The position numbers and the translations under genes are program-made. Shown here one piece after another: positions 12,995-44,580 of a DNA stretch of 47,611 nucleotides (its first letter is position 1; each line of letters begins with the position of its first letter). The stretch lies in the sequence record NC_054649.1, one strand, 5' to 3'. This stretch comes from Escherichia phage vB_EcoS_swi2. A model generated the notes under the pieces. The model was not told where the DNA came from. It was given only the letters and a program-made list of their open reading frames with translations, and searched no databases.

Positions 12995-13486
12995 ATGATT
13001 TCAGAGCGGGATTACATAGCAATCGCGTCAAGGGTTAAATACGACCCGATTACCGGATTGTTCACCTGGGCTGTAAGTTGCGGGAAAATATCAAAAGGTG
13101 ATATTGCAAATTATCACAACGACGCAGGATACATAACACTTGGGAAGAAAAGATTAAGGGCGCACCGAGTGGCTTGGTTTATCCATTATGGATATGTCCC
13201 TGAGCATGAAATTGATCACATAAACAATATTCGTGATGACAATAGAATTTCAAACCTGAGGGAGGCCAGTGACTGCGAGAACGCAAGGAACACAAAGATA
13301 TCTAAATCAAACACGTCTGGATATAAAGGAGTTCATTTTTGCAAGTACACGGGAAAATGGAGAGCCACGGTAAAGATGCATGGGAAAAGCTATCATCTTG
13401 GTAGGTTTTCAGACAAAGAAGCCGCCCATAAAGCCTATTGCAAAAAAGTAGATGAACTGTTTTTGGAGTTCGCAAACCACGGCTAA
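12995..13486 (+). CDS. HNH homing endonuclease with C-terminal AP2 DNA-binding domain
   Basis: HNH_3-type motif AHRVAW...EIDHINNIRDDNRISNLR followed by AP2-like SGYKGVHF...GKWRATV...GKSYHLGRF; opposite strand to flanking structural genes; AT-rich. Confidence 0.8.
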   Translation: MISERDYIAIASRVKYDPITGLFTWAVSCGKISKGDIANYHNDAGYITLGKKRLRAHRVAWFIHYGYVPEHEIDHINNIRDDNRISNLREASDCENARNTKISKSNTSGYKGVHFCKYTGKWRATVKMHGKSYHLGRFSDKEAAHKAYCKKVDELFLEFANHG

Positions 13487-40954: not shown

Positions 40955-40982
40955 AAAACCCTCCGATTGGAGGGTTTTTGTT
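40955..40982. terminator. Bidirectional terminator hairpin
   Basis: aaaccctcc gatt ggagggttt followed by TTTGTTAT. Confidence 0.6.
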
Positions 40983-41934
40983 ATCTGATGACTGACATTT
41001 TCTCTATCAACTCGCCAGCGTCATAAATCTTTCTCCTGATTCTCTTTGCCATCCTGATTGTGTCAGCATCATCAGGTAGCATCACCGGAAGGCCTGCATT
41101 CTCTGCGGCGCACAGCTCGTCGAATTTATAATTAACTATGCAGCGTAACCGTGCTTTCGTCTCATCGCTAACAGAACGCACCACTTCCCACATGTTTTCC
41201 GGTGACCAGCAGCACCAGACATGGGCGCCAGTGAAGTAATGGCATTTCCACGCATCGGCATAATCAGATGCCAGGTAAATGAACTTTCCGTTGTCTTCTC
41301 CGATTGGACTTATCGCTCCGCGCGTGAGCTTTCCGTTGATAGCTGAGTCTTTGTTGTATCCAGCACGGAAAAACGTTCTGAATAAATCACCATCCATGCC
41401 AATGAATGCCACGTTGCACGGCTTCATTGTGTCAGCGCGCATCATCTCAACCGCAATAAGCTCTCCAGATTTACCTCTGGTGACATTAACGTCGCAACCA
41501 ATACCATTTATCAATGTCCACTCATTCATCGCGACACGCGTCGTTTTGGCCATGATTGCTGCGACTTCCTGCTCGGTGATGAAGTTATCGTTGTAATTTA
41601 TCTTCGGCAACTCCTTCCTAATTGCCTCCAGCTTTTCACGCGGGTGCATATTCAGGAATCCACCAAGTGCCTCCAGTGCTTCGGGAAAGCTCATGCCTGA
41701 AAGTTTCATCAGCCAGTTCATGCCGCTACCGGAACCGCACTGATTGCATATTGCGCCGCCGTCGCCTTTTGTTTCGAAGTTGTCATCGAAGCGATACCTG
41801 TCTTTTCCTGAGCATGACGGGCATGGCTGATGCTTGCCATTGAAAACTCTGCTATCCACATTGACGATAGACATGATGGCGGCTTGCCAGTTGCCAAGCA
41901 TTTTTGGCTCAATGTCTTTCCAGTAGTATCTCAT
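40981..41934 (-). CDS. Putative DNA primase with zinc-binding motif
   Basis: CPSCSG...CNQCGSG zinc-ribbon near N-terminus; start at MRYYW with AGGAAG RBS. Confidence 0.5.
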   Translation of the reverse strand: MRYYWKDIEPKMLGNWQAAIMSIVNVDSRVFNGKHQPCPSCSGKDRYRFDDNFETKGDGGAICNQCGSGSGMNWLMKLSGMSFPEALEALGGFLNMHPREKLEAIRKELPKINYNDNFITEQEVAAIMAKTTRVAMNEWTLINGIGCDVNVTRGKSGELIAVEMMRADTMKPCNVAFIGMDGDLFRTFFRAGYNKDSAINGKLTRGAISPIGEDNGKFIYLASDYADAWKCHYFTGAHVWCCWSPENMWEVVRSVSDETKARLRCIVNYKFDELCAAENAGLPVMLPDDADTIRMAKRIRRKIYDAGELIEKMSVIR

Positions 41935-41946
41935 AAAATCTTCCTG

Positions 41947-41975
41947 TTGACTGTGATGTAGAATCATTGTAATTT
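41947..41975 (+). promoter_or_regulatory. Sigma70-type promoter TTGACT-N17-TAATTT
   Basis: Contains conserved GTGATGTAGAATC spacer motif. Confidence 0.45.
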
Positions 41976-41981
41976 ACTCAC

Positions 41982-42026
41982 ATGAAACAATCAATCGTTA
42001 CTTGCAATGAAACAATTAATCGTTAC
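41982..42026 (+). repeat. Tandem 20-bp direct repeat ATGAAACAAT(C/T)AATCGTTAC x2
   Basis: Copies at 41982-42001 and 42007-42026, 19/20 identical, 5 nt apart, immediately downstream of promoter. Confidence 0.7.
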
Positions 42027-42041
42027 AATAGAGGATAAGAA

Positions 42042-42194
42042 ATGGCTATCACCGTTAAGAAGTGCGAGGTTTGCGGAAATGAGTTTATCGGAACTGCAAA
42101 AGCAAAATGTTGCTCAGGAAAGTGCAGATTGCGCAAGCACAGACAGAAGAAAAACCCAATTCATAACTCAAAAACAGATAATGGAATATCTTGA
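42042..42194 (+). CDS. Small zinc-ribbon protein
   Basis: 50 aa ORF with C-x2-C ... CC-x3-C; GAGGA RBS; overlaps HNH start. Confidence 0.35.
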   Translation: MAITVKKCEVCGNEFIGTAKAKCCSGKCRLRKHRQKKNPIHNSKTDNGIS

Positions 42195-42654
42195 ATATAA
42201 CCCTGAGACTGGTGTTTTTACAGCTGCAAAAACACATGGAACACTCTGGCGTAAAGGCAAGATTGTTGGGCATAAGAATAAGGCAGGGTACATCACCATC
42301 ACGCTACTGGGAAAACTAAGGAAAGCTCACAGGCTGGCATGGATTTATGTTTATGGAGAAGATATAGATGGGTATGAAATAGACCATATAAATGGTGACA
42401 AATCAGACAATAGAATTTGCAACCTTAGGATTTCTAGTCACCAACAAAACATGTTCAACATGAAAAAGAAATCAACAAATAAATCTGGTGTAAAAGGTGT
42501 GCATTTCGATAAAGGGTGCAACAAATGGAGAGCGCAGACATCAATAAACAAGAAGAGGGTTCATCTTGGTTTGTTTGACACCATAGAATCAGCAGAAAAG
42601 GCGATTCGTGAATTCATGGTTGCTAACCATAAAGAGTTTATTAATTTAGGGTGA
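42181..42654 (+). CDS. HNH homing endonuclease with AP2 domain (paralog of 12995..13486)
   Basis: AHRLAW...EIDHINGDKSDNRICNLR and SGVKGVHF...NKWRAQ motifs; track ORF starts upstream at 42007 without RBS, so internal ATG preferred. Confidence 0.75.
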   Translation: MEYLEYNPETGVFTAAKTHGTLWRKGKIVGHKNKAGYITITLLGKLRKAHRLAWIYVYGEDIDGYEIDHINGDKSDNRICNLRISSHQQNMFNMKKKSTNKSGVKGVHFDKGCNKWRAQTSINKKRVHLGLFDTIESAEKAIREFMVANHKEFINLG

Positions 42655-42657
42655 GTT

Positions 42658-44580
42658 ATGCATAAGATAGACAAAATGATTTCAGAGATTGACATTAACT
42701 TGCTGAAATCCTGCTTGGATACTGGTGATATCGAGCCAAGACCATATCAGTGGTTGATATATAAGTTAACTGGTGATGTGATCCGCCATTATGTTGGTCC
42801 AAGCTATGTAACAGCAAGCGTCGGTAGCGGAAAGTCACTGATGATTGCCATGATAGCAAAGCGTTTTCAGGAAATGGGATATTCAGGGATGATTTTATCA
42901 AGACAGGGCGAAATAGTGGAGCAGGATGCGGAAGAGCTATGGTCGTTTGGTGTTAGAAACTCGCTATTCAGTGCTTCGTTAGGTAGGAAAAGTTCTACGT
43001 ACCCAATAATCTGTGGTTCTGAGGGTACTGTTGTAAATGCTTTGTTTGATAAAAAGGATGGGTCAGGGAATGTTATTGCAAAAGGTGTGCTCTCTGACTT
43101 TTGCCCAAGATTCCTGCTGATCGATGAAAATCATATGGTTAATGACATTGATGTTGTTAATAATGGTGATACGCAGTATGCAGTGATAATTAATGAGCTA
43201 ATGAAAAGGTGCAAAGATAAGCACGGCCATGAGTTGAGAATAATAGGTTATACAGGCTCACCGTTTCGCGGAACTACATCAATAAAAGGCGCTTTCTGGA
43301 AGAAAGAGATTATCAACATAGACACCAAGTACATGGTTGAAAACGGTTTTCTTGTACCAACAATTTTTGGTCTTCATGATGTTGATAGTCTGCATTATGA
43401 CCTTTCAGATTTTCATGGTTCAGATGTTGATGGTACTCAGGACTTTACCGCCGAGCAGCTCAAGCAGATGCAGAAAGAAATTCTTGAGCAAGGTACGTTG
43501 ACGCAGAAAATCATGCTCAAGGTTATGGAATTGACTAAAAACAGGAACGGAGTGCTAATTACATGTGCTGGTAAAAAGCATTGCCAGGAGGCGGCAAAGT
43601 ATTTGCCTGAAGGAAGTTATTCAATAGTTACAGAAGATATGGGGTCAAAAGCCAGAAGGAAGGCTCTAAAAGATGCATACACCGGGCGCAAAAAATTCAC
43701 ATTCCAGATAGCTGCCCTTACCACTGGCGTAAATATACCGTTATGGGATACGAGCTGCATATTGCGAAAAATAATGTCACTCACTCTTCTTGTTCAGTTG
43801 CTTGGTCGCGGGATGCGCCTGCTGAAGAAAGAGCAAATTGATGCCGGGTATCATAAAGAGGACCATCTGGTTCTTGATTTCTCTGGCACGATGTTTGAGC
43901 TTGGTCAGCTATATGAAGACCCAATCCTTGAAGAGGCTGAAGCGCAACGTTCAAAACGCAGTGGTGAACAAGTTCCGTGCCCGAAATGCGGAACAATGAA
44001 CAGCCCATATGCGCGCCGCTGCATTGGCAAAGATGCATTGTCGCCAGATGGTAGATGCGAAGAGTTTTTCAGTTATATCCGTTGCGGTTTCGACAAACAT
44101 GGCATCCGTATTTTTGATGATGGATGCGGCACTAAAAACGACCCCACTGCGCGTTATTGCCGACATTGCGATCATGTTTTGCGCGACCCGAATGCGGCAC
44201 TTAATGAGCGTGCGTATACAGATAATGAGTGGGCTGATGTTATGGATTTCAAAGTCCAGTTAACGAAGGATGGAGAAGGTATTTTGTATCGCTACTGGAT
44301 TAATCGTTGTGATGGCAAAGAAGGCTGGGCTAACGAAGTTTTCTACCCTTATGGCGGCGCAACTCACATGAAAAACATGTTTAAGGCAAAGGCGGTCTTT
44401 CCTCACCTTGATGATAAGTCAATGGCGGGGAAGATCCTGAAATGCCAGAACGCCAAGCAATTCATGATGTATGCGGGATTGATTAAAGCGCCAAAACGCA
44501 TCACGCATCGAATTAATGATAAAGGTCGCGACATAATACACCGCAAAGAATTTAAAGGGGAACAAAGTGAAGCAGCTTGA
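42658..44580 (+). CDS. Superfamily 2 helicase with C-terminal zinc ribbons
   Basis: Walker A VGSGKSLM, DExH-like LLIDENHM, later motifs, Cys-rich C-terminal region. Confidence 0.7.
   Translation: MHKIDKMISEIDINLLKSCLDTGDIEPRPYQWLIYKLTGDVIRHYVGPSYVTASVGSGKSLMIAMIAKRFQEMGYSGMILSRQGEIVEQDAEELWSFGVRNSLFSASLGRKSSTYPIICGSEGTVVNALFDKKDGSGNVIAKGVLSDFCPRFLLIDENHMVNDIDVVNNGDTQYAVIINELMKRCKDKHGHELRIIGYTGSPFRGTTSIKGAFWKKEIINIDTKYMVENGFLVPTIFGLHDVDSLHYDLSDFHGSDVDGTQDFTAEQLKQMQKEILEQGTLTQKIMLKVMELTKNRNGVLITCAGKKHCQEAAKYLPEGSYSIVTEDMGSKARRKALKDAYTGRKKFTFQIAALTTGVNIPLWDTSCILRKIMSLTLLVQLLGRGMRLLKKEQIDAGYHKEDHLVLDFSGTMFELGQLYEDPILEEAEAQRSKRSGEQVPCPKCGTMNSPYARRCIGKDALSPDGRCEEFFSYIRCGFDKHGIRIFDDGCGTKNDPTARYCRHCDHVLRDPNAALNERAYTDNEWADVMDFKVQLTKDGEGILYRYWINRCDGKEGWANEVFYPYGGATHMKNMFKAKAVFPHLDDKSMAGKILKCQNAKQFMMYAGLIKAPKRITHRINDKGRDIIHRKEFKGEQSEAA

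Follow-up and report, generated by a model that had tools for sequence, protein, structure and literature searches.

The stretch of DNA analyzed here, referred to as the window, comprises 47,611 nucleotides (nt) of Escherichia phage vB_EcoS_swi2 (NC_054649.1). At positions 41947–42654, between the genes for DNA primase and helicase, it contains a homing endonuclease gene of the HNH-AP2 type preceded by a compact front end of promoters, palindromes and a small gene, here called ZnR, that encodes a predicted zinc finger. Identity to phages BS5, LPST10, VSt472 and others is 95.7% over 41700–42900, and the window is that of a Skatevirus-like siphophage. The locus is best read, at a probability of roughly one half, as an autoregulated homing-endonuclease cassette in which the nuclease would be translated from an ATG lying inside, and out of frame with, the ZnR gene. 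The elements of the cassette are:

41947–41975, plus strand: P1, putative promoter TTGACT-17-TAATTT; its homologous counterpart in cassette-free relatives is the helicase promoter (TTGATT-16-TATAAG in Akira)
41984–42001: O1, imperfect palindrome GAAACAATCAATCGTTAC, the core of the first of two 20-mers
42002–42029, plus strand: P2, the cassette's own putative sigma-70-like promoter TTGCAA-16-TACAAT, from a consensus scan (-35 at 42002–42007, -10 at 42024–42029)
42009–42026: O2, imperfect palindrome GAAACAATTAATCGTTAC, 85% complementary, in the P2 spacer
42030–42035, plus strand: Shine–Dalgarno (SD) sequence of ZnR, AGAGGA; (A/C)GAGG is conserved in relatives
42042–42194, plus strand: ZnR gene, 50 amino acids (aa; MAITVKKCEVCGNEFIGTAKAKCCSGKCRLRKHRQKK...), with a conserved core of residues 1–37 (C8, C11, C24, C28, R34) and a variable tail
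42066–42081, plus strand, frame +1: proposed nuclease start, with internal GAGG at 42066–42069, a 9-nt spacer and ATG 42079
42147–42155, plus strand: lysine-rich A-run AAGAAAAAC (AAG AAA AAC), where ZnR conservation ends and nuclease-specific sequence begins
42079–42654, plus strand: HNH_3 and AP2 homing endonuclease open reading frame (ORF), 191 aa from ATG 42079; HNH_3 at ~42319–42453, AP2 at ~42484–42609

The nuclease is, on its sequence, an ordinary free-standing homing endonuclease of the HNH_3-AP2 type and has every sequence-level mark of membership. Its HNH_3 domain (PF13392) scores 66.8 bits against a cut-off of 24.8 (1.3e-18) and its AP2 domain (PF00847) 34.5 bits against 33.3 (2.5e-8), and it matches phrog_99 at 2.5e-67 with the alignment beginning at QFITQ (~42154). 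As expected of a free-standing mobile gene, 162 records match the flanks and only 16 of them carry the insert of the window. The first-pass annotation rightly called it the second such gene of the window: the first, at 12995–13486 on the plus strand, encodes 163 aa that are 46% identical to the nuclease studied here and has its own ATG start (MISERDY...), and neither a zinc-finger ORF nor a GTAAC palindrome was found upstream of it. The ICP1 proteins gp59 and gp209 are free-standing HNH_3-AP2 homing endonucleases as well (PMC10448857). Nucleases of that type share both the domain architecture and the presence/absence polymorphism beside essential replication genes; a term search of that article found no mention of an upstream zinc-finger gene or a promoter-embedded palindrome in the parts of the text it reached.

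The 50-aa ORF at 42042–42194, already recognized in the first-pass annotation together with its good ribosome-binding site, is by its pattern of substitution a real gene under purifying selection. The 12 pairwise comparisons of nt 37–105 add up to 101 differences, of which the ZnR frame makes 32 synonymous and the +1 frame 4. ZnR is unannotated in most records, and is usually missed by gene callers because the long overlapping ORF is preferred; only three small-protein clusters of ZnR occur in a collection of 5.8 billion proteins. A tblastn search with the mini-ORF nonetheless located ZnR in 74 phage records, including phages of Klebsiella, E. coli, Shigella, Vibrio, Aeromonas and Listonella. 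Residues C8, C11, G12, F15, C24, C28 and R34 are invariant in 11 diverse ZnR sequences, in which the four cysteines form the zinc-ligand pattern CxxC...CxxxC, and the tail past the lysine run is unconserved.

At the level of sequence, ZnR is a probable treble-clef-like zinc finger. A Pfam search with the mini-ORF alone gave no hit at E ≤ 0.1, and the window ZnR reaches 9.8 bits against DUF2116 ("probable treble clef"), which is below the cut-off of 26.8; 8 of 11 ZnR family members match that profile, the best at E = 4.7e-4. An exhaustive HMMER search collected 125 relatives, mostly proteins of 2–8 tandem copies of the ZnR unit, and DUF2116 hits 35 of the 124 distant relatives scanned (best 1.4e-20). 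ZnR shares its Cys spacing and the FCS/CCS motif with DUF2116 and the tandem CxxCGxxF...CSxxCR proteins, some of which are fused in frame to HNH domains (P0050, P0103, L076). It differs from them in its sub-threshold score, in consisting of a single unit and in the absence of in-frame fusions from the phage cassettes. Proteins from metagenomes, more than 100 of them (P0004, P0005, P0008 and others), consist of 2–8 such units with basic linkers between them, and a few end in an HNH domain. Comparison of the ZnR profile with Protein Data Bank (PDB) sequences gave only generic "KCxxCGKxF" zinc-knuckle matches.

Upstream of ZnR lie the two near-identical 20-mers described in the first-pass annotation, ATGAAACAATCAATCGTTAC at 41982–42001 and ATGAAACAATTAATCGTTAC at 42007–42026, which are identical at 19 of 20 positions and start 25 nt apart. 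They are the only copies in the window even when three mismatches are allowed (0 expected from 100 shuffles). That annotation had overlooked that each 20-mer is itself palindromic, with an imperfect inverted repeat, GAAAC-N8-GTTAC, in which 14 of 18 positions are self-complementary by manual count; within the window the motif G[TA]AAC-N8-[GA]TTAC is confined to this locus. O2 fits between the -35 and -10 hexamers of P2, and its final three bases, TAC, are the beginning of the -10 hexamer, so that an inverted repeat overlaps core promoter elements, as in an operator-controlled promoter. A separate 12+12 palindrome without spacer (GTGTTTTTACAG/CTGCAAAAACAC, 42212–42235, 92% complementary) lies in the HNH ORF just past the ZnR stop.

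The arrangement was compared among 26 representative nuclease-bearing cassettes from enterobacterial, Vibrio and Aeromonas phages. Far from being absent from related elements, an outcome for which the first-pass annotation had allowed, the palindrome is present in 24 of them (19 strict, 5 in the degenerate form GAAAC-N8-GTTTA). All 24 share one register, TTGNNN, 2 nt, then G(T/A)AAC-N8-(G/A)TTAC, with the TAC of the site starting the -10 hexamer; examples include Vibrio phage 1.236.O (TTGACT..GTAACCATAAATCGTTACAGT), phiHSIC and pYD38-B. Three cassettes, HC6b, L039 and L040, have two sites 25 bp apart, as in the window, and in HC6b the half-sites and the 25-bp spacing are kept and the N8 sequences are different. 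Because the N8 sequences differ in these two-site cassettes, the half-sites rather than the 20-mer as such are the conserved feature. Marine cassettes have one site each, within the promoter spacer. Since the same promoter–palindrome geometry recurs in 24 of the 26 cassettes and at several genomic sites, the repeats look like an operator rather than an RNA element or a target-site duplication, the other two options raised in the first-pass annotation.

ZnR is the obvious candidate for the protein that would bind the palindrome, because no other partner stays constant as the nucleases are exchanged, and because locus L064, which has ZnR without a nuclease, retains the site. There is also a hint of co-variation between ZnR residue 33 and the half-sites. 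Lineages with GTAAC...GTTAC half-sites mostly have His at this position; those with GAAACGCAACT-type sites have Phe, and those that lack the palindrome have Trp. The window also has His33, together with GAAAC...GTTAC.

The front end is conserved and the nuclease behind it is swappable, as judged from the sequences compared, and the cassette of the window separates the helicase start codon from the helicase promoter. In phages ~90–95% identical in the flanks, the primase–helicase gap contains the HNH gene of the window, other HNH_3-AP2 genes, other options, or nothing: Bas80 and Bas78 have a 257-aa endonuclease-VII-like gene, HC6 an unrelated 87-aa ORF, and Akira an empty gap of 75 nt. A second genomic site of the front end, between a hypothetical gene and exonuclease VIII, is found in HC6 and CHRF_10034, and further sites are used in Vibrio, Aeromonas and Listonella phages. 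In HC6 (L004, L010), the zinc-finger/HNH cassette stands ~2.4 kb from the primase–helicase gap, beside the exonuclease-VIII-like gene, which shows that the cassette is not tied to a single site. The downstream nucleases belong to at least four PHROG families, phrog_99, phrog_1035, phrog_953 and phrog_20046, the last with a weak T5orf172 signal; a phmmer search of four cassette nucleases against 127 representative proteins gave no hits. The 334-aa nuclease of Skate (L011, 1538–2542) looks chimeric, with an HNH_3 N-terminal part and a Cys-rich endonuclease-VII-like C-terminal part that occurs alone in Bas80 and Bas78. In L048, L060 and L064/L065, nuclease ORFs are truncated (61 and 38 aa past the ZnR stop) or absent, and ZnR and the operator are retained, a pattern consistent with decay of the nuclease and retention of the zinc-finger gene.

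Comparison with insertion-free relatives, proposed in the first-pass annotation, rests on Akira. Its gap (L005 1736–1810, against 41935–42009 of the window) is homologous to the stretch P1–O1–TTGCAATG, and the alignment runs from P1 through O1 to TTGC(A/C)ATG, the helicase start of Akira. P1 is therefore the likely ancestral helicase promoter, and the insertion point all but coincides with the start codon of the helicase gene. Another possibility is that Akira arose by deletion, with an O1-like half-site retained, and does not represent an empty ancestral site. The promoter reported at 41947–41975 by the first-pass annotation is plausible, yet the consensus promoter scan did not call it.

The neighboring features are:

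40981–41934, minus strand: DNA primase gene, likely true start ATG 41934 (MRYYWKD) with AGGAAG ahead; Zn_Ribbon_Prim 4e-12
41966–41994, minus strand: promoter-like site for the primase gene, TTGATT-17-TACAAT, from the consensus scan, with its -35 hexamer inside O1
42658–44580, plus strand: helicase gene, beginning 3 nt past the nuclease stop

The resulting 954-nt version of the primase gene is the one annotated by RefSeq in relatives. No terminator is predicted between the nuclease stop and the helicase gene, and with a gap of only 3 nt the helicase gene is thereby placed downstream of P1, P2 and both operators. After its Helicase_C domain, the helicase has weak, borderline zinc-ribbon-like matches at residues ~441–456 and 490–508, which are at or under the Pfam curated cut-offs.

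The relation between the reading frames of ZnR and nuclease is fixed. In all 50 unique nucleotide versions of the cassette, drawn from the tblastn records and from IMG/VR and metagenome scans, the nuclease ORF occupies frame +1 of ZnR, with none in frame and none at +2, and extends at least 110 nt upstream of the ZnR stop; no in-frame ZnR–nuclease fusion was found in this set. The sole +2 case, in 15G and L066, is an ordinary ATGA-coupled gene that does not encode a nuclease. Because the nuclease N-termini are unrelated, the fixed frame argues for translational dependence on something inside ZnR. The first-pass annotation had raised translational coupling or frameshift control of the nuclease. 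The constancy of the +1 relation across unrelated nucleases supports a translational link in general; coupling at ATG 42181 fails as a general mechanism, and no recognizable frameshift signal was found.

In the window the +1 frame is open from 41986, a second point missed in the first-pass annotation, and the ATG codons at 42007, 42079 and 42181 are all in the HNH frame. ATG 42181, taken there as the nuclease start, does exist and does overlap the mini-ORF by 14 nt, in the +1 frame. The conserved HNH N-terminal segment (FITQKQI), however, starts upstream of it (FITQKQIMEYLEYN in the window, HISQERLREVLDYN in Skate, LITHDELIKTLSYD in sal3), and this segment aligns with phrog_99 and with the extreme N-terminus (M-ISERDY...YDP) of the other HNH protein of the window. 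RefSeq annotation of identical relatives begins the nuclease at the ATG equivalent to 42079. In about 12 of the 26 representatives, including Skate, sal3, SeLz-2, L043, pYD38-B, L052 and Vib1.210, the ZnR stop has no ATG, GTG or TTG within 30 nt, which rules out coupling at that stop as a general mechanism.

Within the first 50 nt of ZnR, 23 of the 26 cassettes have a +1-frame start preceded by an SD, which is GAGG, GGAG or another SD-like tetramer 3–9 nt (mostly 6–9) ahead of the start. The start is an ATG at +37 (from AAT-GAG) or at +46 (from (T/C)AT-GGN), and in a few cassettes a GTG. Wherever there is no +37 ATG, Tyr/His16 is encoded by TAT or CAT. TAC is used in pYD38-B, a cassette with the +37 ATG, and CAC in 15G, one without a nuclease. 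In L066, also without a nuclease, a +1-frame stop (GTA AAA) occurs at ZnR codon 30, which counts in favor of an internal start. For the window, a nuclease start at ATG 42079 has about even odds.

Taken together, the cassette may work as follows. The front end consists of a predicted sigma-70-type promoter, P2, with its spacer filled by the 18-bp inverted repeat G(A/T)AAC-N8-GTTAC (O2); in enterobacterial versions a second copy, O1, lies 25 bp upstream, just downstream of P1 and overlapping the -35 of the divergent primase promoter. A strong ribosome-binding site and the ZnR gene, 40–50 codons encoding a treble-clef-like protein, follow. ZnR would bind O1 and O2 and repress the cassette, and given the position of the cassette it might also damp transcription of the flanking primase and helicase genes. 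The nuclease would be made at a low level from the ZnR mRNA, starting inside the ZnR gene at ATG 42079 behind GAGG 42066–42069, and would have an N-terminal leader of ~25–30 unconstrained residues; ribosomes translating ZnR would interfere with this internal start. Transcripts from P1 and P2 might yield different ratios of ZnR to nuclease.

Several observations weigh against autoregulation with an internal start. The promoter scan called 2 sites in all, against a shuffle expectation of 3.6, and is thus not above chance. The distance from the P2 -10 hexamer to the ZnR ATG is 12 nt in enterobacterial cassettes as opposed to 17–23 nt in marine ones; because only 12 nt separate the two, a P2 transcript would begin inside the ZnR SD, which makes it unclear whether enterobacterial cassettes use P2. 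The internal start is not strictly conserved, being ATG at +37 or +46 and GTG at +19, +22, +34 or +37, and L040 lacks one altogether although its 208-aa nuclease ORF is intact. In synonymous resampling, an open +1 frame with a start codon arose by chance in 30–89% of cases per lineage, and the lineages are non-independent. Val30 is encoded by GTT also in sequences in which no stop could arise; avoidance of a stop at this codon is therefore weak evidence and was discarded as a discriminator. For ZnR itself, the AlphaFold model (AF2, 3-sequence alignment) is poor, with a predicted local distance difference test score of 60, and a Foldseek search of PDB with that model returned nothing significant (best E = 0.46; YacG, E = 1.4).

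Two other accounts of how the nuclease is translated deserve consideration, and both seem unlikely. In the first, +1 recoding in the lysine-rich A-run at 42147–42155 would yield a fusion of ZnR residues 1–37 to the HNH protein, in which ZnR would serve as an N-terminal domain for DNA binding, with unshifted ZnR acting as repressor or competitor, following the logic of InsA/InsAB' in IS1. The constant frame relation over at least four unrelated nuclease families would fit such a mechanism, as would the position of the boundary between ZnR core and nuclease-specific sequence exactly at the A-rich run, the unconserved ZnR tail beyond it, and the absence of protein-level constraint in the +1 frame upstream of it. 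The intact L040 ORF without an internal start and the in-frame ZnR–HNH proteins found elsewhere also speak for it. AAA-A permits perfect +1 re-pairing of tRNA-Lys; the same tetranucleotide is, however, trivially present in any Lys-rich stretch. No conserved stimulator is present: the A site at the run has neither a rare nor a stop codon, an SD at prfB-like spacing is missing upstream, and the overlap region shows no significant RNA structure (z = +0.95). Recoding also has no need of the upstream open +1 frame with its SD-preceded start seen in 23 of 26 cassettes.

Related shifting mechanisms were considered and set aside. Transcriptional slippage as a general mechanism is ruled out, since the A-runs measure only 4–7 nt, too short for efficient slippage. 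The -1 frameshift of the IS1/IS3 type, on an A6G or A6C heptamer, does not fit, as the downstream ORF is at +1 in all 50 cassettes. Nor is a prfB-type +1 frameshift site present, the window having AUA UCU UGA without an SD. In SeSz-2 and Skate (L002, L011, ~1636–1653) a strong SD-like GGGAGG stands one base ahead of UCU UGA at the ZnR stop. This prfB-like appearance (GGGAGG-U-UCU-UGA) was rejected as a signal: conserved nuclease N-terminus lies upstream of that stop, and GGGAGG is therefore probably just two Gly codons.

The second account, translational coupling in this phage, would have the HNH protein made from ATG 42181 by re-initiation after ZnR termination, 13 nt before the stop, with the upstream open frame incidental. 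This ATG does overlap the ZnR stop region, the Met is kept in L041/L042, where the same nuclease subtype stands behind a different ZnR group, and short gene overlaps are frequent in phage operons. Against it, no SD precedes this ATG, the product would be short of ~9 residues of the conserved N-terminal segment, and the Met is absent, with no canonical start near the stop, in Skate, sal3, SeLz-2, L039, L043, pYD38-B, L052, Vib1.210, L067 and L070.

A wider scheme, a portable two-product platform, is quite unlikely. Here ZnR alone would be the repressor, and any nuclease that had recombined in behind it would be attached or co-expressed through rare +1 recoding at the lysine run (or through the internal start); ZnR would supply catalytically unrelated nucleases with shared DNA recognition, and the primase and helicase promoters would come under the control of the selfish element.

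That the repeats bind a factor other than ZnR, whether a regulator from host or phage that acts on the divergent primase and helicase promoters or a protein that recognizes the repeats as iterons of a replication origin between the two replication genes, is highly unlikely. The repeats do lie between primase and helicase, O1 overlaps the primase -35, and cassette-free Akira keeps a GAAAC...GGTTAG segment at the homologous place. The sites nevertheless travel with ZnR into contexts unrelated to replication, near exonuclease VIII in HC6 and after the lysis genes in Vibrio phage 1.236.O; there are two copies only, with none elsewhere in the genome, and marine cassettes have a single site inside the promoter spacer. 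The IHF (integration host factor) and TyrR-box readings of the repeat were rejected on a spacing misfit, in a by-eye check against consensus sequences.

It is hardly credible that the 20-mers form a structured RNA leader or arose as a target-site duplication: as tandem copies downstream of P1 they would be within P1 transcripts, but the leader folds no better than shuffled sequence (minimum free energy -6.3 kcal/mol, z = -0.03) and has no Rfam match at E ≤ 1, it is the half-site sequence and not pairing that is conserved, the site is upstream of the expected transcription start in most cassettes, and both copies lie on one side of the insert, 5 nt apart, and travel with the cassette to unrelated insertion sites.

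The proposed autoregulated cassette resembles several known systems in part. In phage T4, the intron-encoded homing endonuclease I-TevI represses its own promoter. The likeness is that of a homing endonuclease promoter with an operator, by which a potentially toxic nuclease is kept low; the I-TevI nuclease is itself the repressor through its own DNA-binding domain, whereas here a separate small ZnR is constant and the nuclease family varies. In the com-mom operon of phage Mu, the tiny Cys4 zinc-finger protein Com activates translation by binding an RNA hairpin. There, too, a small Cys4 zinc-finger gene just upstream of, and overlapping, the gene for a potentially toxic DNA-acting enzyme controls its expression. 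The target of Com is an RNA hairpin, in contrast to the present cassette, which has no significant RNA structure and in which the conserved element is a promoter DNA palindrome.

In IS1 (InsA/InsAB') and IS3 (OrfA/OrfAB), a -1 shift takes place on A6C or A6G motifs. Those elements likewise have a short upstream ORF for a DNA-binding, repressor-like protein and a catalytic ORF that overlaps it out of frame at an A-rich run; their shift is -1, whereas here the relation is +1, with no defined slippery motif or stimulator and with an internal start codon available. In lambda Rz/Rz1 and phiX174 D/E, translation of a second protein is initiated within another gene, at an internal start in its +1 frame. 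The present case differs in that only the first ~115 nt of the nuclease ORF overlap ZnR and the overlapped part is without protein-level constraint.

What appears new is a conserved, portable module of operator, promoter and zinc finger, combined with a proposed out-of-frame overlapping nuclease start; the anatomy of the module and its conservation are solid at the sequence level. No description of the zinc-finger/palindrome front end turned up in the literature searched, a negative that argues weakly for novelty. Phage genomes abound in free-standing homing endonucleases, and to our knowledge little has been learned, outside T4, about what stops their expression from doing harm. In the present case at least four unrelated nuclease families, from phages of enterobacteria and Vibrionaceae, share one small front end (promoter, palindrome and a zinc finger of ~37 residues) in a fixed frame. 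If the proposed functions are true, nucleases would be exchanged on a modular "expression platform". The N-terminus that these nucleases receive in current annotations is arbitrary. Given that the cassette lies between the helicase promoter and the helicase gene and overlaps the primase promoter, ZnR as its putative regulator could also affect phage replication genes; a selfish element would then be entangled with its host in a new way.

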